DNA of 64,000 nucleotides from Chlorokybus atmophyticus (lineage: Eukaryota; Plantae; Mesostigma and Chlorokybus algae), in NCBI GenBank assembly GCA_009103225.1, contig RHPI01002112.1:156150-220149 (forward strand), read 5' to 3'. Positions 30,480 to 53,096 of the stretch are shown here, piece by piece (within the stretch, counting starts at the first letter, position 1; each line of letters opens with the position of its first letter). The notes beneath the pieces are model-generated. The model was given only the letters and a program-made list of their open reading frames with translations. It made no database searches and was not told the origin of the DNA. Both the position numbers and the translations under genes were made by a program.

Positions 30480-31720
30480 TTATTTTTATAAAAGAGCCTC
30501 CATCAACTTGTTGAGACGTCACACAGTGTTGGCCCGGTGTGTATCATGCAAGTGCGTTGTGACATACGCAACTTCACGGCACGGCACGTGTAACAACAAT
30601 GAATACAATATTGTCTATGGCACAGTCGCAGAAAGTGATTCTGAATATGGATATCATAACGTGATCACGACATGCGGATGGGTCTGTGTGCATTCATATT
30701 GGCAATCGTCATCATTGTTGAAGTGATGTGCACATGCTATCGCTCTTGCACCATAGGCTGGAGATTGACTCACTGGTGGCACAATAGAAGACATCGCCCT
30801 CGTTCAGCTCGTTCTTGCGCACAAAAGGGTTCTGACGGCCAACAAGAGTCAGCTTTAGCTTGCCCTTTTAGGCAATGCCAGTTGACATATGGTTGGTTAG
30901 AAGTGTGGCAAACGCATAGCACCCTGTGAGCATTAGCGCTTCGAGTGCACACGCCCACGCACGCGCGCGCGTAAAGAAGACAGATGCGCGTGTACACGCA
31001 ATCAACTTTCTTGACCATCATGTAGTCAACAGGCAGGTCCGCTTTGGTTGAGGGCAGATGAGTCATGATGTTGCACGCTGCTTGCCATGACTGTCCTATT
31101 CTGTTGGCTTCGTGTCACCCAATCTCGCGCACACACAGTTTAGGCCACAGTTCGCAACCCCTGACAGCTTATCTTTTGCAATCAGACCATAGTTGTACTA
31201 AATGCTGCGCTTACAGATAGGTTAACCCTTTCTCACCATCAGCATGTGGTGACTTGCATGCTTATCAAAAGTGAAGCTTCGCGCATCGATGTCCTTCATA
31301 AGCTCTTTCGCCTACGGAGCACCAGGAGGACAACTACACACATATGCTTCCACACATACACAATGCACCCATGCAGCGTGCAACTGTGCACACACGTGCA
31401 CGCAGGTATAACAACAATGTCAAACACTGAAGACAGCATCAGCTGGTCTCTGCATCCTCTACATCCACCGAGCTCATGCCGTGTATGGACGCCTGCCCGC
31501 AACATGCATGCGCACAAAAGCTCTTAACGCCGCCCCAGCATGCAAGCTACGCGGATTTGCTGCACTATGCACAAGCACACATGCATCTTGCATGCCTTAG
31601 GTGATAGGATTTGGGGCAACGGGCAATCCTCATTGGGCCACGCAAGAACTACTGTCCAACTGAACGGCAAAGCTGCGGCGAAGCTCACCCCGATGCACAA
31701 ACATGCGCTTAAGGTGCGCT
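30480..31720 (-). pseudogene. Bicupin (vicilin/germin-like) pseudogene, copy 1, 5'-truncated and strongly decayed
   Basis: Clear nucleotide and peptide paralogy to 50478-53450: AKELMKDIDARSF, KADLPVDYMMVKK, GAMRLPHF*, GKLKLTLVGRQNPFVRKNELNEGDVF, THPHVVIT. Contains stops and frameshifts. Confidence 0.75.
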
Positions 31721-32089
31721 TGCTTTCGTTGCTCCGGCAACTCGCCTTGTATGATTTAAGCTTGGGTGTGTTCTTCTCGCTCATCACTGTCGTCCTGTAA
31801 GGTACACATATTACTCACGAATACATGTTGGTTGGGGGTTTTTACAATCCGTTTACTCGCAGCTTACACTATTTCATCACACAACTACTAGCTGTACTCC
31901 CAACCTTGCAGGTGATGAGTGCACTTTGAGAGAGAGCACAAATAGTTGCTTAGGCCTACAACATGGCTGAAACATTAAAATTTCACATCACGCCAGCGTA
32001 TGTTTTCGTCAAAGGCATTGCGCCAAGCAAAGGGTATCGCTACATTATGTGGGTGCATTCGCCACTTCATCGAGCATAGTGGGTTGACA

Positions 32090-32200
32090 GTGAAAGCCAC
32101 TCAACTGCTGGAGCTGAAGGATGGCAAAGCACGCCGCGCTTTTAGCAAAGAGCGGCAGGAGGAGCAATTGCATAAAGTCCTCGCAATTGCTGATGGTGAG
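32090..32200 (+). pseudogene. Pseudouridine synthase pseudogene, exon 2 remnant (left half of the split copy)
   Basis: DGKARRAFSKERQEEQLHKVLAIADG followed by GTGAG, versus intact GGKAARRAFSKERQEERLAKILAAAG followed by GTAAG at ~55853-55932. Confidence 0.85.
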
Positions 32201-32205
32201 TTGTT

Positions 32206-32307
32206 GCAAATCTTACGGGAATCGTTAGCAGGATGTGATTGCTGAATCCGAGCGTCGCAAATCTTACGGGAATCGTTAGCAGGATGTGATTGCTGAATCC
32301 GAGCGTC
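32206..32307 (+). repeat. 51-bp tandem duplication at the left junction of the large element
   Basis: GCAAATCTTACGGGAATCGTTAGCAGGATGTGATTGCTGAATCCGAGCGTC present twice (32206-32256 and 32257-32307). Confidence 0.95.
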
Positions 32308-33297
32308 ACAAATTTAAGTGGTGACTGATTAAGGACTGAGGGATTGACGGGTGCCTGAGCCTGCCTGCCGCTGCCTGAAATGTTACTTTAGGACTGTTGG
32401 GTTTGCCGTTGGCTTAAGTGGACTGACGCGGACGGCCGCGGGCCGAAAGTGGTTGTTAGTGGCACTGACCGGTCGAGAGTTGTCAACCAGCTACCCTTTG
32501 GTCGATGTGCACAGACGGCCGTTAGCTGGTAGTCACGAACAGCTGACAGCAATAGCCGGCAGTTCCTTTGCGGTTACACTGCTGTTGATATGTGACCCTT
32601 ACCGTTTGACAAAAGTTGGCAATTCTTGCCGTAAGCCAACATTAACATGCCATGCAGCTTGTACAACCCTTGGACTGATTGTTTGGTCTTGCAACTATAA
32701 GCCCACAATATATACAATGTACCGGCATTGGTGAGAGTATGTCCACTTGCAACTGGGCAGTCAACTTGCGCATGAAACTACCTACAACATGTTGAGAGTT
32801 ATTCCTACATACGATTAGCATCGACCCTCCACACATGAGTAGAAGGTCGTAAGAACGAGCACTAGGACGACGCCATCTTGCGAAATCCGGAGTCCGGACT
32901 TAGCAAGATGGCGTCGTCGGACCAGACTCTGGACTCCAAACTGCAGCCTCACTAGCTGCTTCGTATCTCCGCGTATACTTACTCATGTTAGGCGTGTGAG
33001 AGCTTATGGAAATCTCTGATTGAAACGAAGCAACGCAGCTTGAAGCGCGTCAAAAGGCTGAGTATAGCTTACGCAGTGCTTGCAAACGTAGACGTGTGTG
33101 TAACTGGCTGGTATAAGAAACCAGCGGACAACTTGTAATGGATGAATGTTGATGTGACTTGTGTATGCTCTGGTGGCGGTAGCTCTGTCTCTGTGCATCC
33201 ATGCTTGTCTCATCTACATGTGCATGCTATTCCTTCAACACAATATTGAGTCTAGCTGTCGCACTCATGCGCAGCTTGTCAACCCGTGGTGCCTGCC

Positions 33298-34177
33298 TCA
33301 GATCTCCTCCTCGACCCCCTCCTCCTGTTCCTCCTCCGACAAGTCTTCTGCTTCAACAACAAAGTCATCTTCTGCCTCGCTCGCTGACAATACAGCGGCT
33401 ACTTCGTCCTTCAATTTGATTGTCAGCACCTCGCCGTGCACGCGCATGCGCTTGATGGTCGCTTTGAGAGTGACCACCTGCATTTGGTGATGTTGTAAGA
33501 GTGGCGTGCTGCCAGAGGACTAGCCCATCAGCATACACATGCTTACCTCGACTTCCGCTTTGTTGCACTCCGCCAGGCAGACAGTCAGCCTGTCGTGCTG
33601 CTCTTGGTTCACTATGACAAACATGGCAATCTGCAAGCATACTGCTTAATTGCCGCTGAAAACATTGAACTAGGTCATGGATTACCCGCTCGTGGCACTC
33701 CGCAGCTTCTCTTTTGCAGCTTGTGAGCTCCCGCAAGTAGAAATAGGCTGTGCATTTGCGAAATTGATCATGCTGTTCATGTGCATGACACTGGAAGCAG
33801 TGCATGAGGGTGTGCATGTGGTATTGATAGTGTATATCACGTGCAAGATACTTGAGGCTGTGCATGTGCAAGATAAAAGAACCCTAGCATGTGGCATTGA
33901 CAGTGCATTGTAACCCACCTTGGTTATGCTAGTCTTGTTTTGTCCCTTCAATTATGTCGCCGTGGTCGCAGCTGCTGGTGGGTGAGATGTCCTTAGAGGC
34001 AGTATTGTGGTGTGCCTTTGCCCACTCAGAGGGGGAGCCCTGTAAGATATCGCCCGAGTCACTGTCGTCATTTGCTGTGCCCTTAGTAGGCATGGTAGGG
34101 TTTGACACCAAGGACACCCCACCGGCACCTTGCCCGCCCTGTGCGAACATGGTCTTCATCCCGGACCTCGACCACAA
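33298..34177 (-). CDS. Orphan spliced cargo gene of the transposon (coiled-coil/acidic C-terminus), function unknown
   Basis: Exons with GT-AG borders: ..SCDHGDII / AYFYLRELTSCKREAAECHER / IAMFVIVNQEQHDRLTVCLAECNKAEVE / VVTLKATIKRMRVHGEVLTIKL..EEEQEEGVEEEI*. No family recognised. Confidence 0.5.
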
Positions 34178-34750
34178 CGCCCACTACGCCACTGGCAGCC
34201 GCTAACGACCCACCAAACGCCACATACCCTCGGCATCACCGCCTGTAAGGGCATAGCTTGGCGGAGCCATCAATGGTGTTTTCAAGCGCAGGGACTGCCA
34301 TTGCCACTGTACAAAGGTACTATTGAATTGGTATCTTTTGGCAAAGGCACTTTCGTACCATTGAAACGTTTCAAATTATTTATGCAGACTCACCCCACCC
34401 TGGGCGTGTAATGGCTCGATCGTATTATAGTAATGGTACGACGGACCCGTTACGCCAGTGAATGGCGGCCAAGTTTCCCGCCTCTGGCATGCAAGGGTAG
34501 CGGCGGCGGTGGGGGCGGCGGCGGTGGCGGTGCGTGTTGCTGGATATGATGATGCAGGTTACATTGGCTACACCTGTGTCGACGTCAGTAATGAGCTATG
34601 GGAGTCCTTTGTTCGTATTGCCACATGTGCTTCGCCACACGCAGCTCGGTCTACATGCACATTGTTAGCAGCATGGTGTGCAAGCAAATCAAGCTATATG
34701 TCGACCAGCGTCCATTACAGTAAGATGCGGGTCATGTTGAACTGGGGAGT

Positions 34751-37690
34751 TTGATCCAGGATGCGCACATGCTTGATGCTGAAGGACCCCTCCAGGAGAT
34801 TCACGCACATCAGCAACATGAGGAGGAGGAAGTGAACGAGGGCTTTCGATGTGTGCGTGTGCCTGAGAAACCTGTGGCACGCCAACATGGAAGTGGAGGC
34901 GCCCCTTCGCACGCGTCGGAATCCATGTGGTATGGCTCGGAGCATGCTCTTGCAGTGGCATTCGAGCTGTGCAACAACAGCCAAGGCCTGTCGGCCTCCG
35001 ACATGGGGCGGATCATCAAGTGCATCCAAAAAAAAAAAAACAACAATGCACACTTCCTGACGGAAGAGCTCCAGTGGGAGACCGGTGTGCATGTGGCCAG
35101 CTACCTCCGGACCACAATTGCTTTCTCTCAGTCTGAGGTGTGTTCATGGTGTGCGGTGCATGTGCTTCAACCATTACACATATGTCACATATGCACATGC
35201 GAGTGTGCTGCCGTATCAGAAGACGTAATAAATTAGGTGACGGCTAATCTGCGCAAGCCTGGAGACCCTGAGGATCAGAACATCAGCGTCACACATATGC
35301 CTGCCAAGGTTTGTAAAATGCAGTATCTGATGCAATATCTATGCAGTATGTAATCTGAGGCTAGCATGCCTATTAATGCTCTTGGTCAGAGCAGGTATAG
35401 CTTGCGCGGTTGTATGGCAATCCACATGCCGCTAATGGCTTCAATCTCCAGCACAGTGGAGACGAGCACAACTTTGGCCATCCTTCCACGGGCGATTGGT
35501 GGAAGGATGTGGAGGTGGATTTGAGGAGAGAGGTGGGGAAAGCGTCCTACTTGGCGCCTGCCATTCTGTACAATGACAAGACCACGCTGGATTGCGCGGG
35601 CAAGCGCTCTGGCTACCCTCTGATGGCATTGCTTGCCAACTACAGTTGGGACATGTATGCTAGCAACATGGGGGTTGTGATAGCGCTTCCGCCCTGGTTT
35701 ACGCAGTGGCCGGGCATCCCATTTGGGCTGAGCTCTTAATTAAAAACACATGAGATTTTTCATGACGCTTTGAGTGTTAGGGGATGTAAAGCGGGCGAGC
35801 TGGGAACGCGCTTGCCAACTACATCAGCGACTTGCAGGTAGTGGGCATGCATGGTTGTAAACGGATGCAGCCTGCCGGCAAACAGTGCATGGAGGATGTT
35901 GTCAGTGGAGCATCTGAGTTTCTCGTGTTGCAGGAGACTGCCACACTCGCACACACTATGTCGGGCAACTAAACACGAAATCCTTGCAATGTTTGTCTCG
36001 TCACCAAATCAGATCTGTTGGAGATGGATGAGGATCGGGAATTGAGAACCAAGGCTTTCTACACACCAGTAATACGTCAGCTGCGGGCGGACCTTCATAG
36101 CGGTGTTAAGAATGCACGCCAGTCAGCCAAGGCTTTCATACAGCAGCACTCCATGCATGTCGAGGAGGTACTGGTCAAGTTATCAGCATTCGCGAGGATG
36201 AATGGCTTTTCGTGTAATCAGGCAATGTGGTTTGGCAACAGAATGCACAGTGGGGTTGGCGACAATCGCGGGTGCCGGGAGCTGAGTACTACTCTCGTCT
36301 TGCCCCTGACGCAATGCATGTGCTGGGAAGCATTGACCACATGCATGCTGCTGTGTACCACGCTGCGAAAGAACGAATGAGTCCATCCACGAGACAGGAT
36401 CTGCAGGCCAGGCACGTCTTTGTTGTTGCTTTTGTGTTAAACACAATAGCCAACGACACGTGCTCACAAGCAGATGAAGATGAAGCATGCAAGGCGACTT
36501 TACGGGTTTCCCACTTTAAGGCACCCACAAGCACAGTAGAGTTTTTCCTGTCCAACCACTCCTTTCAAATGGTGGAGAAAGTGGCGGTGCTGCACACGCT
36601 GCCAGTCCTTGCAGACGGTTTGCTGCTCGACATTAAGGGCAACGATTTCTTCACCGTGACTGCCGTATCGCTTGCCCAGTGGAACAAGAAGTTGTTCAAG
36701 GCGCATGAACACACAAGAGAGACCCTGACCACAGCCGACAACGAGCTGGTTGCCTTTAAATTTGTAGTGTTGCATCCGATACTGTCGTCATATTCTGTCT
36801 CCCACAGAATTCAGGTTGGAAGATTGAGAAGATGCATCAGCTTACTCATTTTAGGCCGGCAATTCTCAGCAATGGACACTTATATTGGTTCAGCGCCAAC
36901 CGCATGGAGCAGGCGCACGCCTAAAGTATAAAAAAGTGGGCGCGTGGTGGCAACAACCGGGACTACCAGGCGCGTATTCTGAAGGCATGGAGCTATGCGG
37001 CATATGTGAGAGAGGATGGCATGGTCGTGAATCCCGAGATGCGCTCGGTCATGGCACAGGCGCGGCAGCAGTGCTGTAATGGAGAAAACGAACAAGTTGC
37101 TACAGATGGATGTGCTGACAAGGAGGGAGTTCAGCCCGTACTGCAGCGGTTCTGCGCGTAGCCGCCAAGTCGCCATGATGACTCCATTCGCTGACAAGCT
37201 GCCTGCCACCCTGGACAGCTGGTTGAGGAGGGAACATTTGGAGTTGGCCGATGAGTGGCGTGCTGTTCGCGTGGTGAACGGAGGCGCAGCGGTGTACATG
37301 ACATCCGGAGTCAACATGGCACGCGCAACTGGGATGTTCCATGGGCGGCCTGGGTTCTCAACACTTGATTTGGAAGGTGATGAGGACGGTGTGAACATGA
37401 CGTGGTGGGCTCAGGCACTCCTTTTTTTGCGCGTGGTGGTGTGGGGTGGTAGCGGCAAGCGCGTGTGGAAGGAGGTCGTGTTTGTCCGCTGGTACACGAA
37501 GCTGGATATAACGAGCGACGCAAAGTGCATTGCTCTGGAATGGGAAAAGCGTCGAGGGGGTACACATCTCGATATCGTGACTCTGGAGCAAGTAAAAGGC
37601 ATTGTCCAACTGCTCCCCATGTTTGACAAGGACAGCGCCCGTAAATCAGAGGGCAAGTATTGGGTGAGCGTTCACTGCACTACTACGTGA
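34751..37690 (+). pseudogene. Plavaka-like transposase (RNase H-fold), spliced, disrupted by stops and frameshifts
   Basis: HPSTGDWWKDVE..YLAPAILYNDKTTLDCAGKRSGYPLMALLAN matches the Plavaka GDWW..PIILxSDKT..YP.Y...GN core. Also LAPDAMHVLG (DxxH), HTRETLTTADNELVAFK, WKIEKMHQLTHF..NGHL..ANRMEQAH and a C-terminal RATGMFHGR..AQALLFL..FVRWY..IVTLEQVKGIVQLLPMF domain. In-frame TAG at 35398 and TAA at 36922. Confidence 0.78.
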
Positions 37691-37899
37691 CACATGTACT
37701 TGTCTCACTACTCTGAGTTTGGAGCATATTAGTCAGTTACGCATTGATAATCGTATGCTAAGACTTTTGCATGTGGACGTGTACAATACCGGGCAGCTGT
37801 CATTGCACAACTGTCACCACAATCGAATGTTGAATGCAACATTCAACAATCAGCCAGCTGTGTGCCAGTAAGCATCAATACAATGCACCACACTTAAGC

Positions 37900-38825
37900 C
37901 TTATAATTCCATGACACAGGAGGGTAGTCACAACGCATATCCATTGTTTCAAGCATGAGACGCCCTATGCGCTCCGCCATTGCGGGAAGAATGCATTTGC
38001 TATGGTAACGGCCGAGGTTATCCATGACACTGCGAGCACTGTTTGTCATGCAGCAATGCCGCCCCTGGTGCTTGGAAGGCCATAGACCGGGTACATTTGC
38101 TGTGGCGCATTTGATGTCACAATTGTCTTCTTCGCGATAGCGGACAGCTGCGGCGATAGCATTCCAACCGCCTTGCCCGCGTGCGAGTAGCGTGCTGATG
38201 GGGTAGCTACTATTGGCTGTGTCTTAAATAGACGGTATTGGAAGGTTGATAGGCCAAACATCGTGCCACAAAGGGACAGATTGGGTCTGAATGAGGAAGC
38301 TGCTCCTGGCACATTCTCAATCACAAACTTGACCTGGCTTGCAAGCAGCAGATGTCGGATGAGCGGTATCATATCCTGGTGTCTCAAGAATGTGCCATGT
38401 GCCGCCCGTTAAGGTGCCGAAATAGCACCAGAATAGGCCTGACATGGTAAACTGGCCCATATGAGCTCGTACTTGCTCAGCTCTCCTGCACTCAGGGTGC
38501 ATACATTGCGGTGTATGAAGGGCAGCGGGCACTTAGAGGAGGAACTTATGGCCATCCCGTCAAAGCCTGCGCGATGTAGACCGACACTGGCACCGCCACC
38601 GCCGCAGAATAGGTCGAGTGCCCTTGATCTGCGTGTGCGTCCAAGCTTGTTGTCAAATGGCGTGTATGTGGTCAAGGCTGGCCGTGGTGCTGGCCATGGA
38701 CTAACAATAATGCCGTCCGGGCTTACTTTGCGACTGACATTCTCCCCTCCGGCGCGCAGAGCATGGCGTGCCCCGTCTGCTGATGTGTACGCGAATACGT
38801 CGTGCCCTTTGAAGTTGATGGAATA
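37900..38825 (-). pseudogene. DNA (cytosine-5) methyltransferase, Dcm/phage-like type, carried by the transposon
   Basis: Motif I ALDLFCGGGGASVGLHRAGF, motif IV LIWASLPCQAYS, motif VI FVIENVPGA, LCGTMFGL..YRLFK, and C-terminal SW..IANAFFP/MAERIG (motif X-like). In-frame stops at 38409 and 38046. Confidence 0.88.
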
Positions 38826-38912
38826 CTATACGGTGCTGCCTTGCAAAGCCATTTTCCGTTGCACCATGCATATATAATGCGTCCTCAATCTCGCACGCCA
38901 AGAAGCGGTGCT

Positions 38913-39055
38913 GACCTTACGCTTACTTGAATAATTCCACAACGCCCGCATACCATTCCCATCCAGCGGCCAATGCACCATGGCACTCGCACCGATCAGC
39001 TGCTCGCATCCCAAAATAACTGCGTTCCGCAGCCGATGCAATGCGCGGTCCAACG
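38913..39055 (-). CDS. Tudor-like exon spliced in phase to the methyltransferase exon
   Basis: LIGASAMVHWPLDG, then (in the adjacent frame) WYAGVVE, then YSSKRK joined to YSINFKGHD. Resembles the plant MSH6/PDS5-type Tudor pattern V.WP.D..WY.G.V..Y....Y.V.Y. It needs compensating 1-nt shifts. Confidence 0.45.
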
Positions 39056-39266
39056 ATCAATGGTCTGCATCCTCTACAGCAGCCAGGGGGTGAAACTGCT
39101 CACGCCCACACCGTGGACGACTGCTCTGAACGCGACAACAGCTTCAACATGCATGAAATAAGCATACGCCCAACATAACATGCAGTGATACGTCGCTGTC
39201 CACTCTGCCGAATTACCTCCACAGCATCCACCACCTGTCCACTAACCACATGTCCCGGTGTTGTCC

Positions 39267-39803
39267 ATGTAACGGGAAGGTACATTATATAATGACAAAT
39301 CGACGATAAAAGCATCAAGTCTTTTATGGTCGAGTGGGCTGTGACAGTGGTCATCGGAGCTTGAGACCCGGGTTTGATTCCTGCCTTGCACACGAATTCC
39401 GCGATCGTTGTTTCTCGATCCAATATCATCGTAAATGGTCACTTTATAAGTGCCATCATCGCTGCGTCGCGACTTGCCTAATGGCAGTCGCGCCGAACTG
39501 ACCAGTTCAGTCGGCGCGGCAGGGCGCGACCTGCCTATCGCGGCGACGCGACCTGTGGGGCCGGCAGCGGCGCGCTATGCGCGCGCTGACCGGTATTGGC
39601 TTAAATTAGCCGATCCTTGGGTGGTGGGGCCGGTGATCGACCCTAAATCAGACCCCCGAGATGATTCCCCAGCTGATGGGCGCCAGCTGCCGAGGACGTC
39701 AGCGTTCTTAAGTGGGGGGGGATGTAACGGGAAGGTACATCATATAACCACAAATCAACCATAAAAGCACCAAGTCTTTTGTGGTCGAGTGGGCTGTGAC
39801 AGT
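39267..39803. repeat. 82-bp direct repeat (39267-39348 and 39722-39803) flanking a 373-bp GC-rich, hairpin-rich insert
   Basis: ATGTAACGGGAAGGTACAT.ATATAA..ACAAATC.AC.ATAAAAGCA.CAAGTCTTTT.TGGTCGAGTGGGCTGTGACAGT occurs twice. Confidence 0.88.
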
Positions 39804-39959
39804 CCATGTGAAGAAGCGCATGGGTTCCCCTCGCTACTCGAAGCATGAGCGCGAGCACGATTCGCACATGCACTGCACGCAATGGAAAAACTCAGGTTCC
39901 TTGCACAGCACTTTGCCGAGGCGGCAGCCAAACACATCGACATTGTGTGTGGTGCGATG

Positions 39960-40546
39960 TCAGCAAGCAGCACTAAAACCGTGGCACATGGTGTGCACTC
40001 GCTGGCATTTAATCAAGTGTGCTCGCATTTGCTGCCTACGGCCATTGGCACATACGTACGCATTGCATTGTGGGCACACCAAGCATTGTCTCCTAGGTGA
40101 GGGGGATTCAACTGCTGCCGCCGACATCATGCAAAATATGAATCGGCACGGCTGCCCACAAACTGAGTAGGTCTTTTGGGTAAAGGCATCAATCTTGGGT
40201 TGCCAGCTTATGAACCCTAAATGAGTCACACTTTAAAAAGCACCACTGTACCATGGACGATATTACAATACCATGCATGGTACTACATCAACATGAATGG
40301 TACTCCATCCATTAATGTTCCTACAGTACAAGGATATTTGCATACTACTACGCTCGTAGAGTAATACAGTACTGTCACTCCATGGAACCCAGAGCGCTGT
40401 CCGAGGTTGTTGCTGTCAACCACGCTCTGAACCTGCAAGGTATGCAAGCTATGCATTGACTCATGCGCCGGGCAGTCATCATACACATGTACAGCCAATG
40501 CTTCCAACAACAGCAGATCTTGGGTGTACCATGCACCATGGTGCAA
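39960..40546 (-). pseudogene. Decayed cargo exons including a zinc-finger-like segment, possibly the N-terminus of the methyltransferase gene
   Basis: QCLVCPQCNAYVCANGRRQQMRAHLIKC at ~39990-40090; DLLLLEALAVHVYDDCPAHE..VQSVVDSNNLGQRSGFHG at ~40380-40520. Confidence 0.4.
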
Positions 40547-40611
40547 CTATAAATGTACCTACATGGTTTACAGGTGTTCAACACAAACCTACAATACATG
40601 CACAATTATCA

Positions 40612-43600
40612 TCAAGCTGGGGTCCAAATCACTGCCGACACATTGGCGTCTTGCAGCAGGCGTGGCGACCAAACCGGGTGAGGTTGCTTGCACATGGGAC
40701 ACGCTTGTAGCTCCTTTAATTTATTTGCCACGTGCTTCTGCTGGTATGTGATGCAGACATAGCACATTCCTTTCTTGCAACAGGGCGTCTCCCCATCCGC
40801 TGGGGGGGNNNNGAACTCTTCACTACGACAATTCAGCACGCGGGTGTGCAAGCTGCCTCTGCGACCAAACTATGTTATCGCGTTGCAGACGCAGCGACTC
40901 CCATTTGAATGGCGCAGCATAACGCTCCATTGCCTGCTCGATTACCCAACGCCCATCTGCTGCCATACACCACCCGCTGGTCTTGGTGGTTTCGTCCAGC
41001 AAGCGTTCATCCAGGCCCTCGACATGGCTGTCACTCCTTGTGTAATCGCCCGCATCGCCATCTTCTTCAAGCTTTCACAAAATCAGCTCGACGTGCCGTA
41101 TGACATACAACCACTGCCAGCCAAAGCATGCCAAGTACAGCTCGAATGGTTTTACTTGCCACCCAGTATGTTTGCTCAGGTAGTGGCACACATCTCGACC
41201 CGCATCAGTCGACATCAGCAAGTACCTCTGTTGCAGCAGGTCGAAGTTCTGCTTTGCGGATAGCTCTTGCACATTGCCGGGTTGCTGCGGCAGCAACAAC
41301 ACCATCATATCGAGGATGGCGAGGGGCAACGATGTACTAGGGATGGCCATGTTGTGTTTGGGTTCCAACCATGGCCAATCCTCGAGGTCTGCTTATACCG
41401 CACTCTCTGCGTTTGCTCCCACTTATTGCATACTTTCGTCACCCACGTAGAGGCATGCCGCATGCGGTGATGCAGCGCGTCTTGGGCATATTGTAGGGCG
41501 ATCAACTCCTTTGCACTGTGAGTCAGCCCCTCAAAGCGTCTGCGCATCGGTGCTTTGAGCTTAGGCAGCTCGTGCCGCACCAGTTGTCTCTCTGGACAAT
41601 GCTGAGCAGCCACATGACGCTGTAAACCCGCTTGTGCCTACTCAAGTACACAGTCAGCCCCAGTAAAGCTTTAAGGCGCTGTGCTATATTTAACTACATT
41701 GTAACGATGCCTCACCTTTGCTTTTTTAGTCCTGTCAGCGTCCCTTGTTCCAACAACCTTCTTTTTTTTTTTTTCTGGGTCAACCTGCACATTTTGGCAG
41801 GCGCTCTCCGTGGCACTGTCACTTAGAGGAGGTAAAGCGTTATCTTCTTGCTCCACGGCCTCGCACTTGTTGGTTGCCTCCCGTTCCTCCACGACCTCAT
41901 GTTGCTTCATGAGGTCGAGCATGAAGCCTTTATCTTTCAGCGCAGCTTTTATGACACCTCGATTAATCTCTTTACCAACAAGACAGGCTGAGATCAATGT
42001 GGCAAGCTTAGAGGGAGAGGGCGAGCTACCGCTGCTTTTTGATGCAGATGCCTCTGGATGGTCAGAGTGCGGTGGCAGTGAGTCTCCGCAGCAGAAAGGG
42101 AGGTTGCTGAATTGTTATTGCGAGCATGTGGCTGTGGTTGAGGGGAGGCAAGATGTGCAGAACAGTCGGCTACTTCTTGCCTAGCACGCAAAAGCAAGGC
42201 ATGAGGCGTTGGTGCAGCACCCAGACTCGCAGCCGGTGGTAGCGGGGCATTGGCAACGCCATTCCACCACTCTCTGATCAAGTCTGTTACCTCCGGTGGC
42301 ACTTTATGCATAGGCCACGACCGTTGTTCGGTGCTTGCAGGCTTAAGGAGCCAGCAGTGTGCTTTTGGCTCATTACGAGCAGTGTTGCCCAACACCTGGA
42401 TTGAGTTGGGGGCTTCCTTATTTGCAACCCAAACTGCACTGCGGGCCGTGGCACCCGCTCCCCATGCTCGCGCTGAACGATCACGTAGCCAATCAACAAG
42501 CCCAGCTTGTTGGCAAACATGGCCATCTGCAGGTGCTCCACGTATACGTCTTTTCTCCGCACGATCTGTCGCACCTTAGCCATGGCTATGTTAATGTTGC
42601 AATTGACATCAGCCAACATGGTCCCAGGCAGTTTGTCGTAATACTGCGCCATCTGTCCCGCGGCACTAGTGGCTCTGCAGAAGTCTAGGATTCTGCTCGC
42701 CACACCTGCATCGACAGCCTTAGCGGTGATTTTGCGGAGAGTGTCCCCCCTGCCGTCGTCGTCCATGGTATCCAGCATGGCCCAAAATCTGCTCGAGCTG
42801 GGGCACTTGTGGTCATCCAAGACACTTTGCGCGATGAATGGCCTGGCGCAAAACACAGAATGTTAGAAGCAGTTACCAGCCGTTGGCGCATTGAAGTGGT
42901 CCCATGAGGTGAGCTGGCCACCTACCATGACTGATGGCCGTATGCGGGTTGCGGCCAGCTCCTCAAATGACTCGCTGGCAGATGGTGACCCCTGCTGCAT
43001 GCGCATACAGCACTCAAATGGTGTGTCTAACTGTCGACGGCAAGAGTCACAGGAACTGATAAAGTACCTTAGCTTGGGGCAGATTGCCGGCTTCAACTTG
43101 CAGCGGGTGGGGTCAAGTAGGTGCAGAAGCCACATCGGTTGTTGCATTATGCTGTGGTCTCACCGGTTGCGGCAAGAAGGATTGTTGCCCCACAATTGCT
43201 GCTCGTGAAGGCGACAGCAGTGCATGAAGGACTGGTGCCGCGGAAGGTGGTTGCGCTCTGGTTGCGAGGGGAGCAGGTGCGGCAGGTGAGACCACTTGTG
43301 CATGCAGCAAGGGGGGCTGTATATAGGACCCAGGTTAAAATGGCTCGCAATGTTGCAAAGGATGAATATAAGCTTATGTAGTGCCTGACGCATTGTTACC
43401 AAGGCACAAGCATAAAAGACAGCGACTTACCTCAATGGCCCGTGGGCTGCATGAAGCAGGGGAAGCCATGGGGGCTGCCAAGGTGGTATTGGGTGCACTC
43501 TCCCCGCCACCCTCAATTGCAGACTCGCCACGGAACTCGTGCGCCATGGGCACAGGATGCGCCACTGCCCCAATGAACATGTCGCAATTCAACAGGCCAA

Positions 43601-44540
43601 CATGCATGTTAAACTGATGCCGCATTGCCGCCGCGCCCATCAGCAAGTGATTGAAGGACCAGTTGATGGGATTGAATCTAAGCTTGCATAAGAGCTTGAA
43701 CAGGACCTAGTGCACTGTGGTGCTGTCAACCAATCACATGTGGGTTAGCTGCATGCTTGCGACACTGCAATTGCAATAGTCAAATGCGTCACACCGTTAT
43801 CAGTTGGTTGCTTCGAACATTCACCTGCGGCATTGCTGGTTGATGCACTGCTGGCTAAATGCCGGACGATTGGCCACGCGCTCATGTGCTCACCCAGCCT
43901 ACTTCATTCGGCACGCGCGCGCGACTTTGCACGCTCAGGCACATCCTAGCATGCAAAGGTAGGCATGCATTGGAGGTGCATGCAGTCAACATGCACAACG
44001 AGACTGGCAACAACATACCGCCCTGCTCTGTGTATCTACTCTGGCTTCCCCAATGTTGGCTTGACTGTGGGGTGGGTATGGGTGAATAGTGGAGGCCTGC
44101 AGCCACGCTACAAATATCACATGGACTGCGCCCGGAAAAAATAAATCTCTTGCAAGGAAATGCATGTAATTGTTGAGCGTAACTATGCATTCCTTTGTAC
44201 TTGTTCCCACAATCGCAATTGGTCCCGCATGATTATGACAAGGGGCTCCAAGGATTGCAGCTCCTGTCATCCACTCCTTGTTGCAGAAAGCGAGCCACCA
44301 AGCAGCTCTCTATGTGAAGATGGTCCTTAATGGCTTGCCTGCTAGTTTGTCCAATGTTGGTGATGCATGTTGGACAGCTCCATTGCTAACGCCTGCCATG
44401 ATCCATGACGTGGCGCCCGGTATTAGCTTGCTTCGCTGCTTGAACTTTTACAATCACAACTTCTCGCAAGATGTGCCACGCAGCCGCCTCCTCCTCCTAC
44501 TCCTGGTCCTCCGCCTCCTAGTCGAACCCAGGTCCACTAT
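40612..44540 (-). pseudogene. Large multidomain cargo gene: zinc finger, Ulp1-like (C48) protease, OTU-like protease, RING finger; decayed
   Basis: WSCPTCITNIGQTSRQAIKDHLHIESC (~44290-44385). Ulp1-like NPINWSFNHLL..VGLLNCDMF, IFILCNIASHF and PQHNATT-(D)CGFCTYL, the last with a 1-nt shift (~43113-43690). OTU-like APTAGNCF*HSV and YVEHLQMAMFANKLGLLIGYVIV..LLVMSQKH (~42350-42890). RING TPCCKKGMCYVCI..ACPMCKQP (~40680-40800). Confidence 0.55.
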
Positions 44541-44990
44541 GCCTGACAATTGAGCCGTCATCGACCTGATGCCCCTGCGTGCCATCATCCGGCCATCGAT
44601 GAAGCTGTTTGGGTGAGTGCACGCTAACTCCCATTAGGGCTGGTCGAGCAATGCCTTTGTCGTACCATGGATGGTACGACAAAGCTATAGTACGCCAATG
44701 GCTGGGTTGGACGAGAGATGCCTCTGTCGTACCATTAATGTTACGCCCAAGCCATTGTTACCCTTGGTTGTACAAAGCATGGATGGTACAAATGCATAAG
44801 TCGTACCATTAACCATATGAGACGGACGCACTACAAGTGCGAATCTAGTGCGGGACACTAGACGTTCAAAACCGCCTCATTTTCATTTTCGCGCCTCGTA
44901 CATTTGGGCGGGCCACCTGGCGGCGGCAGCGTTGGATGCGGCAGCGCCACCATCAGCTAAGCAAGTGGCACCCGACAATCAGTTAGAGAG

Positions 44991-46833
44991 ATGCCTCGTA
45001 GTCCATCTGCAGGTGCACCTCGTCGTGGAGGTCGGCGCCATCAGTCCACATTGCCCCTAGTGTTCAACCAGGCAACCGTCGCCAACCAGCAGCAGCCACT
45101 CTTGGCCAACCAATCGCAGCACGACCCCGTGCTAATGCCCAGCCCATCACAACAACTCCACCTGACACCGCAGTGGCAAGGGCAAGCTAGAATGCATGCG
45201 TTCTTGATGCAATGTGCACGTCGCTTCTTGCTCAACTTCAAACTTTAATGCTTGCTTCTTTCATGACTAGCACAGTGACTCACTGCATGCCGTCTGGATA
45301 AACTATGCACGTTGTTCTCCTTGCTCAACCGTAAGGATTGCATCTTTCATGGCTGGCAGCATGAGTCGCGTGGTTATGCTTGCAGAGGGTTGATAGGAAC
45401 CCCCAACCCAAACGCATTTGGCCGTGACGTAGCAACCTCGGCGGTAAGCAACCCTTCCCCAAGCAAGTGAAGGATTGGCAACGAGGTAAGCACCGTGTAA
45501 CACTGTGACACTGTGTGTAACGGATTGTTCTTCTGTTGACAGCATTTGCAAGATGCCGTCGTCGAAATCATAAACGGCCACTGGGTAGAGAGCCACGTTT
45601 ATCCCAAGGAGGACACTATTGGTAACGTCATGTGTCAGGTGCTGTGAATGCTTCATAACCTCACCGCACCGTGACACTGACCAACCTGCCCGTGACATGT
45701 AGTTGGCTTCGACCATGACGACGAGGCCAATGCGGTCAACTTTCGTGAGGTGTATTGGACGGCGAAGGAGTGCCCCACTGGAGTGTCGCCTTGAAGAAAG
45801 CTATGCAGGTTCGGTCAAAGAATGTCACCAAGATTAAGCATGTCTTTGAGAAGGAGTACAAGTGGACACTGTTTAACAGCAACAAGTGCAAGTGAGTTGG
45901 GTCCCTCACCACCATGTCAACTATGCAACACTGCCTTCTTACTCAGCCTCCATACACACGTACGCATCTCGTCTGTTGTAATCGATTCAATCAGGCACAT
46001 CGACGCCCTAATGGACCCTGAAGCTCAAAAAGCTCAGATGCGCAACGCGCTCCAAAGTAAGTCACAGGCACTATTATAGCCTAGTGCAGGTCTAAACTTG
46101 AACTACCCATATCGTGATTAATGCCTTGTTGGTACGACTATCGCAGACAAGTCATGTCGGAAATTTGAGGTGACCGACAATGCAGACCTGGAGCGGAGGA
46201 GATATATTTATGATGGGGGCAATCCCATAATCTGGCAAATGATCGTGCAATGCTGGTCTTACGCCGTCACTACACCTGGTCGTCGGCAGCTGACAGTCAA
46301 CCACCTCACATACCTGTTGCTTACGGTGAGCACTCTGAACTCAATCACTAGCAATTCCGGAAAGCTGCAGCCCCACTACAGGCTTGCAGACGCGCTGCAG
46401 TGAATAGTGGCTTTCAATGCCACTAAGACATGCCCTGTAAACTACGCAGGTGGAGCGCATCCGTAAGGGCAAGGATGGAGACCCCCTCCTAGCTGCCAGC
46501 ATCGACACACATGATGAGTACCTCAGCGAAATCAACACCATGATCATGTCAATGAAGCGAGAAATGAGGCAACGGTACGCAGCCCTCCAGCCATTCACCC
46601 TTGTGAAACGCCGCACTACATCTTGTGTTGAATACCTGAAAGATCCTAATCGGCGCCGGCCAGAAGAGACGTCTGCTCGTGACCCGCTCGCTGAGGCAGA
46701 AGCGGCATTCGATTGGCTGGCGCAAACGTTTGAGGAGGAGGAAGAGCAAGCTCCGGTGCCTCCTCTACAGGCCCCAGCGCGTGATGCTTTATTCCATAAT
46801 GACGAGCAAAGCGTGGATGGAAAGGAGCTGTAG
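44991..46833 (+). pseudogene. Orphan spliced cargo gene near the right end of the transposon (possible TnpA-like accessory protein)
   Basis: Exons with splice borders: MPRSPSAGAPRRGG.., HLQDAVVEIINGHWVESHVYPKEDTIGNVMCQ, HIDALMDPEAQKAQMRNALQ, DKSCRKFEVTDNADLERRRYIYDGGNPIIWQMIVQCW, VERIRKGKDGD..DGKEL*. Some stops and shifts; no family recognised. Confidence 0.45.
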
Positions 46834-47298
46834 CGCAGTTAGTAGTTGAGCTGGTAGTGTACACAGCTGCAAGGCTCTTGTGACTTGGTGTTGTGCATCT
46901 AAAACCAGCTCAGTCAATTGTTATTATGCTCATGCCAAAACTTGCATCCTTATGATATACAACAGAACTGCAGGCATTTGAGTCACATAATCGAATCACA
47001 AGCGTTGGCAAGTGACTGATTGACACTGTACACATTTTAGGTACCTGTACAGCACAGGCACATAACAATGCTGGCAGTCAGTTACAGTCGCGTGTAGTCA
47101 TGCTATGCAAAAACATATGACGACAGTTAGGCATCACTCACCTTCAATTGCTTAAAGGATGCCTTAATTTATTGATAATTACCTAGTTGGTGCTTGTGAA
47201 TTAGGCGCAGTCGCTTGAGCTGGACTGGCGTGTAACCTGCAGATGCCTGTTACATAAGTTGACTCACCACACAAGTAAGAGTGATGTGTAATTTGCAA

Positions 47299-47470
47299 GT
47301 GCCTGCTAATTAGGTGTGGTCACCTGTTAATGGCTGATGTATAACTTACAGGTGCCCGTTAATTAGTTGTAGTCACCTGTCAAGGCCTGATAAGCAACTA
47401 CAGGCTGTCCGGTGCCTGCTAATTAATTACATAGTCACCTGTTAAGGCCTGATAAGCAACTACAGGTGCC
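47299..47470 (+). repeat. Three ~55-60 bp subterminal tandem repeats inside the right end of the transposon
   Basis: Unit GTGCCTGCTAATTA..GTCACCTGTTAAGGCCTGATAAGCAACTACAG, repeated three times with variation. Confidence 0.85.
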
Positions 47471-47548
47471 TGTCTAAATAAGTATCTTTAGGTGCACGGC
47501 CGTCGCCAATAGTTAGTCGGCCGGCAAGAGAAACATTTTGCGACGAAA

Positions 47549-48760
47549 TGCGTGTGGTGTTGAATTATGTTATCACTTTGCCTTATGACCTGAAGGAGAT
47601 GATCTTGGCGGTGTGAGTGATAGTCAATAGCAATGTGGCCATTCTGCCGCAAACAATGAATCCTCCTCACAAGAACAGGCAAGAGAGTCGAGACAACACC
47701 ACAAGTAATCTGTCTTGTGCACAATCGTGCTTGACGCTGTTGCACAAAACGTTGATTGCAGGCATGCCACACTGCAACTAACATTAACGGCTGCAGTCTC
47801 CCTGAGCACAAGCCCAACCGCCTGTACTTCTGTTTAAACAAATCCAAGGTTTACGTGCGCAAGCGCAGCACGAAGGAAGGTGTGTTGTTGATCTGTCCAC
47901 CTAGTGGCCGAAGCCTGGATGGAAAAGCATCCCTTTAGGCATGCATCCAAGGCTGTTCACAGCACGCAACACACGCTGTACAGTTGAGAAACTATTCTGT
48001 ACACACTGCACATGCTATTTAGGAACCAAACTGTGCTTGCAGGTTGGTAGGTCGGATGTGCAAACCAAGGCTTCCGAGGTGATGCATCCGGCTAGCGGCG
48101 TAACGAAAGATTGATGCCACATATGTTGACTGTGTTGAAGCTGATCATTAGCAAGCATGTTTATTGTGACTACCTTAGATGTGGGTGATTAGGTTGACGG
48201 TGCGCTTGCAAAGCCACTCAACATGGGCTAGTGGAACAGCACGCGCGCAGCGGCTCATATTGTAATTGAGGTAAAGCTGCTTGACAAGGTGTTTGCAATG
48301 TGTCCAAACTTTCATCCAAGAGTGCATTAATGAACTTGTATTTGTGCAAAATGGGCATTGTCATGGGCAGGTGGCTAATGGGCGCAATAGGGAGGTATTG
48401 CTAGCTGTTTAAAAATATCGTTTTTCAAGCGTCATGTTTAAGCGCAGGTGCATAAGAGGACATATCATTGCGCAAGCTGCTGTAAGGCTTTTAGCCCTAA
48501 TGTTACAATCTGTTTTATGCCTTGGATGCATTGCACAACCAGTGCAAGTCTTACATGTTAAAATTGCCACGCTGTTTGTTGTTGGGTATTGTGATGCAGT
48601 CCGGGGCAGTTCACCGTAATGCGCTCATGACGTGAGGTGAAGTCAATTTTCAACAAGGCAGCACATCCCAGCTTTGAGACCACTATCCGTCCCGACTGAA
48701 GCGCTTGTCATTACATGGAATGGTGCCTTTCACGTGCAGTGCACACAGCAGCTGCCGCTG
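47549..48760 (+). pseudogene. Pseudouridine synthase pseudogene, exons 3-8 remnant (right half), unprocessed duplicate
   Basis: Collinear with 55980-57300, introns retained: EMILAV*VIVNSNVAILPQTM, INGCSLPEHKPNRLYFCLNKSK, VGRSDVQT (catalytic GRLD altered), VDGAL, VANGRNREV, GQFT. Multiple deletions and stops. Confidence 0.9.
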
Positions 48761-49197
48761 GTGCATTAACAGCTGTGGTGAACTCTCCTATTGTGAAGTA
48801 ATATTGCCAATCCAGTAATGAGTTGTCTTTGCGTCTGCTCTTGTGCATTATTCGTTTGAATTGATGAGAGCCTGCGATATGCATAGAATAGCAGCTTGGC
48901 GTGGCTCTAAGATATGTAGATTTGTACCGCTCGCCCGTCCATCATGCAAAAGTTAGCACGCCCAGGTCCTCAGCGGTAATCTTCGTGGAGGGCTTTGCAG
49001 GGGGTGGGAATACTCATCCATCTCTACATGCGGGTGGATTACCAGTCTATGGATGGTTTGACTACTGGTATTGTACATTAATCTTCAAGACTATTCTACA
49101 CATGCATACACTGCTTTGGCGGTGAATGCAGGTGTATAATAGTCTTGGCACACATTCAATATGTTGAACACCAGCATGCATGCAAGGTTACCAATTA

Positions 49198-49319
49198 CAC
49201 ATACTTTGGTCAAGCAGCAGCCACCACCGGGCACCACTACTCCGTCTACGTTTGCATGCATGCTAGTGTAGACCGAGTAGTGGCACCCGGTGGTGGCTGC
49301 TGTTTGACCAAGGTATGTG
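49198..49319. other. Long imperfect inverted repeat (~52-bp stem, ~18-nt loop)
   Basis: CACATACTTTGGTCAAGCAGCAGCCACCACCGGGCACCACTACTCCGTCTAC (49198-49249) pairs with GTAGACCGAGTAGTGGCACCCGGTGGTGGCTGCTGTTTGACCAAGGTATGTG (49268-49319), with about 5 mismatches. Confidence 0.9.
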
Positions 49320-51184
49320 TGCAAGGCAGCCTGCGACCTAACCAATTACGTATCCCACCCTATTGTCACACATTTAACATGTGCGAGAACACTGTGCTTT
49401 GCTTGAGCATGTATGCACGTTGCTTGCCATTAAGTGCGGCCGCATCAGATAGCAGTACAAGTCATGTGCCCATGGGCCAGTGCTGGTTCTGTATACACGT
49501 GCAGCAATGTGTACAGGAAATCGCAGACGCTATCGTATGCACAACTGGTATATGCAAGGTGTCAATGCATGCATATGTGTTGTACATAATGCGTCAAGAA
49601 TGTGCACGCAATTGCATTTGTTCGCGTGCACACAAGCTTACTACATACGAGAGGACCACTACTATGTACATATTTAACGCGACCTCAAGCACCTGTGCAG
49701 CGAGAGAGGGTGAGAGCAATGCTGACGTTGGCAGTGCAAGGATTACCACGTGGGGAGGAGAGCAGGGTACAGGAGAGTGGGGGCGTAGAGTTGGTAAAAG
49801 CGGAGGGGAGCTCGAGTCGTACTATTGCTGCTGCTGTGATGGCCATGGTGTGACAACAAGGATTAACAACCCGCCCTGTGGGCAGGTAATTGGCTGTACT
49901 TGTATACATGCGTGACGCACGGGGCCGGTCGATAGTGTTGTTGGTTACGCAATAAGTAATTGATGTAGCGGTAACTGAAACTACGTACAGCTTGATGGTC
50001 GTGTACCTGCCTATCGCACAAAAGTAGAAGCCAGCAACTTAGTCTGCAAGAAACTGTCATGGTAATTGCATAACAATGGTTGTTGAACCCAGCACATTGT
50101 TGAGGGTTGACAAAACAACAGTGTGCATCAACTGAAAAGGTTGCTTCCGAAGCAACTGGCTGGTCATAATCAATGACCAGCGAGGTCAAAAGCATTGGGC
50201 AGAACATGAAGTACTGCTAGAGGCACTTACCAACGGACAAATTCTTTACAATGTTGAGTATACAGCACAAGCTTGGTTGTTTACTACAAAGCAGACATGC
50301 TTCCTAACCCCGCACAACCACCATCTGTGTTAACCGCCTGCCAATGGCGGCAAGCCAAGTTCATGCCATCGTCTCATACTAGCCCGAATCTACCCACTCA
50401 TCGTGAACGTCTTCATACTCCACGTCAGCCTCATGGATCCCGTACGGGTCGGGACTCTCCTTCTTGCACTTGGGATTTTACGAGAAGCCGCGCTGCTTCT
50501 CGCGGATGAATAGACGCTGCGCCTTGTCTTTGTCTACGCCAAACACAGCCGCGAGGTATGCTGCGCTTTTAATGAAACAGCCTTCAATATGTTGTCGGGA
50601 CATGTTTGTGTTGACGTGTATATTTGGAAGAATGTCTGCATGCCCAAGTGCTTATACACACATTATGCATTCCTTCTTACATCTTTTGTACACTGCTTGG
50701 CTTGGCATGTATACCTGAAAGGGATACCGTCTTATCTTCAGCACAGCCGTGGAAGCCAATGATCTCTGCCTTTTTATTGCATGGCGTGATGACGACATGT
50801 GGATGGCCCTGTACAAGCAGTGTGTGACGCAATTGCGTGCAAGCGTCATTGTTGCTGAAGCGATGTGCACTTGCTATACTCTCTGGTACCATAGACTGGA
50901 AAATAACTCACCGGTGGCACAATGAAGACATTGCCCTTTATCAGCTCCATGTTGCGCATAATATAGCCTTTCGGGTCGATAAGTGTCAGCTTCAGCTTGC
51001 CCTTTTAGACAATGCTGATTGACACCATGGTGAGATGCAAGTGCGGCAGGCGCATAGAGCCCTGTGCACAGCTTTGAGTTAAGCAGGCACGTACGCTCAC
51101 ATGCTTATATATATATACACATATTCATCTCAATCCCCCTTTCGTAATGACACATGCGCATGACACACTCATGCACATAAACAC

Positions 51185-52813: not shown

Positions 52814-53064
52814 ACACACACACATATGTCCAACCTTTTTGACCATCATGTGGTCGACAATTAGGTCCGCTTTAATCGAGGGTGGGTGAGTCTTGGCGTT
52901 GCAGACGAGCAGCTCGCCATAGTCGTTCTGCTCTGGTGGTTTCATGCCGCCGATTGCATACGATTGGGTTGGACCCATAGTTGAGGCGAAAGGGCGACGA
53001 TATGCAGCTTGTCCTGAAACGCAATGCTAAATTTGTTGAGAATGTGGGGCTACCGTGTAGGTAA

Positions 53065-53096
53065 AAACCTTAACCTTAACCTTAACCTTAACCTTA
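53065..53096 (+). repeat. (AACCTT)5 telomere-like microsatellite in a bicupin intron
   Basis: aaccttaaccttaaccttaaccttaacctta. Confidence 0.85.

Follow-up and report, generated by a model that had tools for sequence, protein, structure and literature searches.

The window analysed here, a 64,000-nucleotide stretch of the Chlorokybus atmophyticus genome, contains a decayed C5 cytosine methyltransferase gene that lies between the ends of a Plavaka-like DNA transposon. Judged by sequence, the catalytic domain that it encodes is a member of a clade of compact C5 methylases of phage type known from giant viruses and algae. We consider it probable that the window holds a dead copy of a cargo gene of this transposon, and that better-preserved copies encode a Tudor-tethered de novo methylase.

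Transposon structure and insertion site

The element, its genes other than the methylase gene, and a small relative are located as follows.

32304-47545, strand not assigned: whole Plavaka-like (CMCT-clade) DNA transposon, 15,242 nt, with the methylase gene inside
34724-37690, plus strand: decayed, probably spliced Plavaka-type transposase gene (Pfam PF18759)
40600-44550, minus strand: further decayed cargo gene or genes with Cys-rich stretches
44990-46833, plus strand: further decayed cargo gene, no Pfam family found
51185-52813, strand not assigned: 1,629-nt non-coding relative sharing its end motif with the large transposon, in opposite orientation

The termini of the large element are 9-nt imperfect inverted repeats (8 of 9 positions matching), and no exact target-site duplication was found at them. 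Both ends align to those of the 1,629-nt relative, at which an AC repeat, uninformative as a target-site duplication, was seen. The end motif occurs seven times in the window, five of them at element ends or in a 51-nt duplication beside the left end. The flanks at 30.6-32.2 kb and 47.6-48.9 kb align to 50.7-57.5 kb, the equivalent of the pre-insertion site, which has about 60 nt where the copy with the large element has 15.3 kb. With ends and pre-insertion site thus defined, the statement of the first-pass annotation that the methylase is transposon-borne holds. The ends at 32304/47545 were preferred to a possible CACTA end at 32860 or 44850, which was rejected.

The host genes recognized by Pfam in the window, a sigma-70 factor, eIF3a in pieces and a pseudouridine synthase, lie in DNA of about 50% GC. 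This content is eukaryotic and probably that of a green alga. The element is inserted into a decayed duplicate of a host gene, which retains 63-77% identity to 50.7-57.5 kb. This reflects an old tandem duplication of the region with the pseudouridine synthase gene (PF00849), 30571-32245 plus 47594-48920 against 50692-57457, with the large transposon interrupting the first copy and the non-autonomous 1.6-kb element lying in the other.

The transposase gene matches the Plavaka family PF18759 at 35401-35736 (E 1.2e-6, 28.4 bits, cut-off 26.3); in its translation a Cys-x2-Cys lies near 35985 and two paired His residues near 36335. From its resemblance, 37031-37690 is probably the C-terminal part of the same protein. 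The element thereby shows the transposase domain with C(2)C and His motifs by which Plavaka elements are defined in the available text of PMC12730594. The same text gives PlavakaA ends as TGT..ACA and PlavakaB ends as CATCA..TGATG, with a 2-3 nt duplication, whereas the window element starts with CGTC, finishes with GACG and lacks that combination of ends and duplication. Because its ends fit neither type, it is named here Plavaka-like and not PlavakaA or PlavakaB.

One short palindrome-like repeat is clustered upstream of the element genes (34250-34460, 40240-40400 and 44650-44850), and these clusters are possibly shared promoter or transposase-binding sites. Strong hairpins are present at 32866-32918 (26-nt arms, 92%), 49197-49320 (62-nt arms, 87%) and 52155-52222 (34-nt arms, 82%).

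For the remaining cargo on the minus strand (40600-44550), Pfam returned DUF3716 alone, at E 0.015 and under the cut-off. Its C-terminal Cys pattern may correspond to a RING-like finger, and a His-Trp stretch in the further cargo (40600-44550 and 44990-46833) may correspond to Ulp1-type proteases. A Pfam scan of whole frames with stops written as X gave no match, and it was insensitive, since even the Plavaka domain was missed. It could be argued that the block is a remnant of an endogenous giant virus later invaded by a transposon, as the closest relatives of the methylase include giant-virus genes. The block is however bounded by transposon ends with host genes on its flanks, its genes look spliced, and none of its 84 open frames matched a viral family in Pfam, so that we regard this origin as extremely improbable.

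The methylase gene and its decay

The gene occupies the minus strand from about 40130 to 37894, the latter being the end of the methylase domain, and is divided as follows.

39802-40130, minus strand: likely first coding exon, Cys/His-rich and zinc-finger-like, with two stops
39268-39801, plus strand: TRIM-like mini-retrotransposon, 534 nt, inside the likely first exon of the methylase gene
38916-39056, minus strand: 5' exon part of the putative Tudor, strands 1-2, with cage Trp at 38972-38970 and Tyr at 38952-38950
38841-38915, minus strand: predicted 75-nt phase-1 GT-AG intron, its acceptor altered in the window copy
38620-38840, minus strand: putative Tudor strands 3-4 and linker, with Phe at 38823-38821 and an acidic loop within 23 nt missing in the window
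37894-38619, minus strand: compact C5 cytosine methyltransferase domain, motifs I-X in one exon, no MBD insert

The Dcm-like motifs reported by the first-pass annotation were recovered in a single minus-strand frame. Counted by hand from a three-frame translation, they lie at 38618-38592 (motif I), 38459-38430 (motif IV, catalytic Cys 38444-38442), 38321-38304 (motif VI) and 38273-38226 (motif VIII region). The window protein, searched with the first stop read as X, matches PF00145 (E 6e-5, 23.1 bits, cut-off 22), and it is of the compact phage type with a core of about 210 aa. The annotation had also described the domain as a single exon. Motifs I to X do share one exon, but this exon is not open, and motifs I, IV (with the catalytic Cys), VI, VIII and X follow in order only when read across two stops and one frameshift, namely TAA 38411-38409, TGA 38048-38046 (a Trp column in the alignments of relatives) and a 1-nt frameshift near 37993. 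The alignment shows the frame running past the TGA to about 37993, and a shift suspected near 38160 was dropped for this reason. In addition, motif II has lost two residues to a 6-nt deletion at 38557, and further upstream the frame is shifted by the loss of 1 nt at 38957 and closed by TAA at 38925 and again at 38919. With four stops in or before the methylase, together with the frameshifts, deletions and the TRIM insertion, the window copy is a pseudogene, and it has no open frame able to encode the enzyme. The fold predicted for the broken protein had a pLDDT of 51 and no PDB match at E<=0.001.

The gene probably starts about 1.1 kb further upstream than the Tudor segment, at about 40130, with the Cys/His-rich exon that is split by the TRIM; the frame of this exon continues past the TRIM into 39267, to about 39160. 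No Pfam match was obtained for 39802-40130. We infer that it is part of the methylase gene and that one or more introns lie between about 39160 and 39020. The TRIM has direct terminal repeats of about 80 nt (TG..CA), a primer-site-like stretch and a purine tract, is flanked by the 5-nt duplication GTCCA, and is CpG-rich in its interior (CG observed/expected 1.18 vs 0.78 for the window); Rfam gave a single chance-level match.

A related version of the gene in public sequencing runs

Three of six public runs compared share a small part of the window's words. These runs (X1, X2 and X3) come from two studies, X2 and X3 being one sample, and over 33000-47500 all 30 bins are represented in each of them at about 90-95% identity, against only 2 bins in X5. 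In the methylase region they carry a version, here called the sister version, with about 92% identity to the window copy, from which the TRIM is missing (39262 joins 39802 in X2 and X3). Among the differences listed over 38385-39075, the same 39 substitutions occur in all three runs, along with three indels of +1, +23 and +6 nt; the 23-nt insert, behind 38820, appears as loose ends in X1 and is put in outright in X2 and X3. On one 2,521-nt X3 contig the 3' part of the transposase gene, the methylase and the Tudor segment are joined; one X3 contig differs from the window at 44 positions, of which the best 39 entered the comparison.

Across the codons compared, 38421-39050, the sister version is stop-free, both Tudor stops being sense codons and motifs I-IV being restored. 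The TAA at 38411-38409 lies outside the base-level comparison, which holds 39 of the 44 X3 differences, and so does the region 3' of 38385. Five sister changes (38627, 38552, 38531, 38507 and 38450) yield the commonest residue in the alignments of relatives. On this evidence better-preserved related copies exist, at least as read over 38421-39050. The search for an intact paralogue, proposed in the first-pass annotation, thus produced a stop-free stretch, though a fully intact copy was not shown.

Codon differences between window and sister comprise 9 synonymous and 19 non-synonymous changes, a ratio close to neutral and therefore evidence of decay and not of selection. The X1 differences are lopsided (A>G 239 and T>C 234 vs G>A 81 and C>T 90), as if cytosines had been lost from the window copy. 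Among the best-supported sites, C-to-T losses were not enriched at CG (5/27 vs 98/381 background), and no target motif emerges from the mutation spectrum of the window copy.

The dominant version reaches a depth of 74-152 in X1 and X2, vs 2.5-11 for diverged pieces, depth being distinct from copy number. This contrast suggests a young multi-copy family accompanied by old single copies. The same data could be explained if the version in the public runs were a single-copy domesticated host locus of related strains, given that contig depth is not copy number, that the runs were compared over 33000-47500 with the flanks outside, and that no second full copy is assembled. A domesticated locus is nevertheless very unlikely in view of the inverted ends, the insertion in a gene duplicate and the small relative with the same ends, and the depth contrast is what many young copies beside old single ones would be expected to give.

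A predicted Tudor domain interrupted by a predicted intron

The first-pass annotation proposed that a Tudor-like exon joins the methylase in phase through a splice at 38913/38825. Both Tudor-like peptides were located, at 38978-38935, in different frames and with stops in the window copy; in the sister version they are in frame. The proposed junction turned out to be a product of decay, as the acceptor at 38825 is present only in the window, where 23 nt are missing. Compared with the window, all three runs are longer by 23 nt behind 38820 and by 1 nt behind 38957, and they differ at 38841, where their base completes a canonical AG acceptor, rich in pyrimidines and 75 nt away from the donor GT (38915). 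Removal of the predicted 38915-38841 intron would very probably bring a PDS5/MSH6-type Tudor into frame with the methylase. The predicted intron is stop-free and a multiple of three in length, and its retention would therefore keep the frame but break the barrel. Its start (38915-38905) resembles the start of the next exon (38840-38830), an 8-nt direct repeat 75 nt apart, which hints that the intron was gained by a small duplication or insertion.

The Tudor assignment rests on residue spacing and not on a profile or fold, and the broken fragments of 33-46 aa gave no match in Pfam or PDB. With the intron removed, the sister version presents W, Y, F, D and D at offsets 0, +7, +25, +27 and +29 (counted by hand). 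In the RDM15/PDS5C Tudor, which binds H3K4me1, the corresponding residues are W616, Y623, Y641, D643 and D645, at the same offsets of 0, +7, +25, +27 and +29 (PMC8184781, available text). The sister reading thus has the cage and acid spacing of PDS5/MSH6-type Tudors with Phe in place of the third Tyr. The H3R2 contacts of RDM15, E647 and Q654 according to the same text, lie at offsets +31 and +38, where the sister reading has Pro and Gly. As the cage, with three positions, and the acidic pair are conserved, we propose that this domain probably binds H3K4me1.

A barrel with another ligand should be weighed here, in which the methylase is active and the Tudor reads a different methyl-lysine or methyl-arginine, DNA or the transposase, for example in marking or protecting element ends during transposition. 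Tudor specificity is set by residues around the cage (PMC8184781, available text), the H3R2-contacting residues are not kept and no profile matches. Such a ligand nonetheless appears quite unlikely, since the two acidic residues that give RDM15 its monomethyl selectivity are found at their exact offsets, and H3K4me1 is the ligand that we prefer.

MSH6-type Tudors predate Viridiplantae, as far as the accessible part of bioRxiv 2025.05.08.652912 describes them, and a host source of the domain therefore existed. No Tudor fusion was found among the longer methylase relatives, in six matches, which is weak evidence.

Origin of the enzyme and a clade with an inserted MBD

The window protein matches 1445 database proteins at E<=0.001, or 2355 cluster representatives, and 289 phage records, mainly from Mycobacterium, Streptomyces, Paenibacillus and Arthrobacter phages. 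A subgroup of relatives shares C-terminal motifs with it, and its C-terminal part scores best against this clade. We built a tree of 40 rows and 227 columns, consisting of the window, 7 MBD-type, 10 marine/giant-virus and 22 phage-like sequences. The rows were picked by the authors out of 289 proteins, insert columns were dropped, eukaryotic DNMTs were not included and the bootstrap had not fully settled. In this tree the window enzyme falls into an 18-row clade of giant-virus/algal methylases (support 100/98) as the sister of 7 canonical-MBD-type rows (94/77, a position that is not starred), on a long branch of 1.22-1.74. An earlier quick tree of 105 rows recovered this grouping too, at a lower support of 86.

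Among others, the clade contains L081:9874-11076, a gene from the contig of a giant-virus MAG, and Chromochloris zofingiensis UNPLg00428 (P0151). The MBD family PF01429 is matched above the cut-off in P0008 and P0131, where the domain is inserted between motifs VIII and IX, and just below it in P0239. In marine members this site is likewise occupied by an insert, whose likeness to MBD is weak (HHalign probability 10%, E 0.003). The modelled P0008 (pLDDT 77) has a C5 methylase fold, and its best viral structure match is the Pithovirus C5 methylase (E 5e-16). The clade profile matches M.HaeIII at E 3e-9 and places the HaeIII/HhaI types far above DNMT1; against DNMT1/MET1 it aligns in motif I only, at E of at least 0.0014. 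No BAH, chromo or SNF2 domain, such as would mark a host DNMT1, CMT, DNMT3 or DNMT5, was found by Pfam, nor did the methylase-gene fragments give a Pfam match to PWWP.

The prokaryote/virus-type character suggested by the first-pass annotation is thus supported by the relatives, the phage records, the tree and the HaeIII/HhaI-type profile matches. Its view of a horizontal acquisition is upheld as to the foreign type of the enzyme, but the likely donor is the giant-virus/algal MBD-insert clade and not a bacterium directly.

Neither the window enzyme nor the sister version has an MBD or MBD-like insert. The distance from motif VIII to the C-terminal motif of the clade is 47 aa in the window vs 109-197 in the 13 clade members measured, and the X3 contig leaves no room for the insert (net +31 nt over 36731-39206, +30 of them in 38385-39075). 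The simplest reading of these sequences is a loss of the MBD and a gain of the Tudor, a histone reader likely having replaced a methyl-DNA reader. A giant virus, or viral DNA inserted in an algal genome, was probably the route by which the enzyme came; the MBD insert of the clade would have disappeared, and introns and a Tudor from the host would have been added.

A further explanation is that the methylase of a virus and a Tudor exon of the host were captured as passenger cargo that has no role in transposition and is drifting. It draws on the only assembled copy being dead, on the near-neutral codon differences, and on reports that viral-type orphan DNMTs in eukaryotes are silent and strain-specific (Sarre et al., PMC12344493, available text). 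Against it, the dominant sister version keeps all inspected motifs and the cage spacing despite its long branch from viral relatives, and remodelling while the gene was expressed is implied by the in-frame intron and the missing insert. Drifting cargo is hence unlikely, and we favour a gene that is functional in intact copies.

Several observations concern the relatives themselves. P0008, P0131, P0239, P0139, P0151 and the L081 gene, from a giant-virus MAG, marine contigs and an alga, have an MBD or MBD-like insert inside the variable region, and this clade is possibly a family of read-write enzymes. On a marine contig, L093:3593-5530, a second MBD match (E 5.7e-5) occurs in a frame near a clade methylase. 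Phage-type relatives include tandem double methylases (P0006, P0128, P0129 and P0242) and fusions to a family A DNA polymerase or a primase-polymerase (P0284-P0286).

A metagenome scan with the window protein gave 64 pattern matches, none of them confirmed. Viral scans with P0054 and P0239 gave no match and that with P0008 one ordinary phage-type locus. A metagenome pattern scan returned 12 loci, five of the methylase clade (one on the contig of L081) and seven of an unrelated bacterial protein, and no Plavaka or Tudor neighbours were seen among the frames inspected there. Prokaryote genomes and viral contigs gave no match in exact 24-nt scans, and a second degenerate viral pattern gave none either.

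Comparison with known systems

DNA methyltransferases have been described in LINE, DIRS and Gypsy elements (SymbioLINE-Dnmt, SymbioDIRS-Dnmt3 and charophyte Gypsy-DNMT3; PMC5890265), and EpiLTRs combine a chromodomain, DAM and DNMT, also in a chlorophyte (bioRxiv 10.64898/2026.05.21.726589). As presented in the accessible parts of these sources, they resemble the window element in placing a C5 methylase on a nuclear mobile element, EpiLTRs adding a histone reader, and differ in their DNMT3-type, DNMT4-sister or orphan enzymes and in their chromodomains. The window element is by contrast cut-and-paste, with a compact phage/giant-virus enzyme encoded in a separate spliced gene with a putative Tudor.

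Mariner-1_OLpv of the Organic Lake phycodnavirus is likewise a DNA transposon with a C5 methyltransferase, but one located inside a virus, paired with an EcoRII-like endonuclease in the manner of restriction-modification and described in the available text without a reader domain (PMC3627910). No endonuclease was found in the window element. Fungal Plavaka, EnSpm and KDZ transposons with TET/JBP genes belong to the same clade and also have 5mC-modifying cargo; theirs is an eraser whereas the window cargo is a writer, and the window ends differ from those of PlavakaA and PlavakaB (PMC12730594, available text).

The Tudors of RDM15/PDS5C and MSH6 share the five K4me1-contact positions, identically spaced, with the predicted spliced sister; as far as these sources describe, they belong to host proteins that lack a methylase, and their H3R2 contacts are not kept in the sister (PMC8184781; bioRxiv 2025.05.08.652912 and 2022.05.28.493846). 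Viral-type orphan DNMTs are laterally acquired, one being close to the Pithovirus enzyme, and unlike the window gene they are, in the text available, generally without companion domains and not tied to DNA transposons (PMC12344493). ChloroDNMTs, which often carry a PWWP reader (PMC12344493, available text), are set beside the window enzyme by description only. Plavaka-flanked giant repeats occur in Amoebidium (PMC11244446), and readers fused to transposable element domains are known (bioRxiv 2021.11.30.470311), both as given in the accessible parts.

Our searches of the open-access literature returned no nuclear DNA transposon carrying a C5 methylase fused to a Tudor, and no report of the MBD-insert methylase clade. 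Transposon-borne DNMTs with readers are thus already known from retrotransposons, and a nuclear cut-and-paste element with a putative Tudor fusion would be new. The bdelloid N4CMT, a host gene, is reportedly a prokaryote-type DNA methylase with a chromodomain, a 4mC enzyme used against transposons.

Proposed role and implications

Intact copies of the gene would produce a protein with zinc-finger-like, Tudor and methylase parts. The Tudor would dock on nucleosomes with H3K4me1, the methylase would write 5mC on nearby cytosines, those of the element included, and new insertions would be dampened or merged into gene-body methylation. H3K4me1 is a gene-body mark in plants (bioRxiv 2022.05.28.493846, available text). 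The single insertion seen lies in a gene duplicate, which fits landing in gene bodies and proves nothing. We tentatively suggest that the use to the element may be 5mC on itself and on gene-body landing sites, providing a tolerated, dampened chromatin state for a new insertion. It can be speculated further, with less than even confidence, that a cut-and-paste family built a DNMT3-like machine from a giant-virus methylase by dropping its MBD and fusing a host H3K4me1 Tudor, and that the donor clade is an undescribed read-write family.

If this is true, transposon-borne DNA methylases would extend from retroelements to a nuclear cut-and-paste element, and the route from a phage-type enzyme through a giant virus to an algal transposon would yield new chromatin-targeted methylases. 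The product would be a small writer-reader fusion aimed at a mark of active chromatin and not at heterochromatin. The question of why mobile elements carry methylases would then be testable through the methylation of young copies and their flanks.
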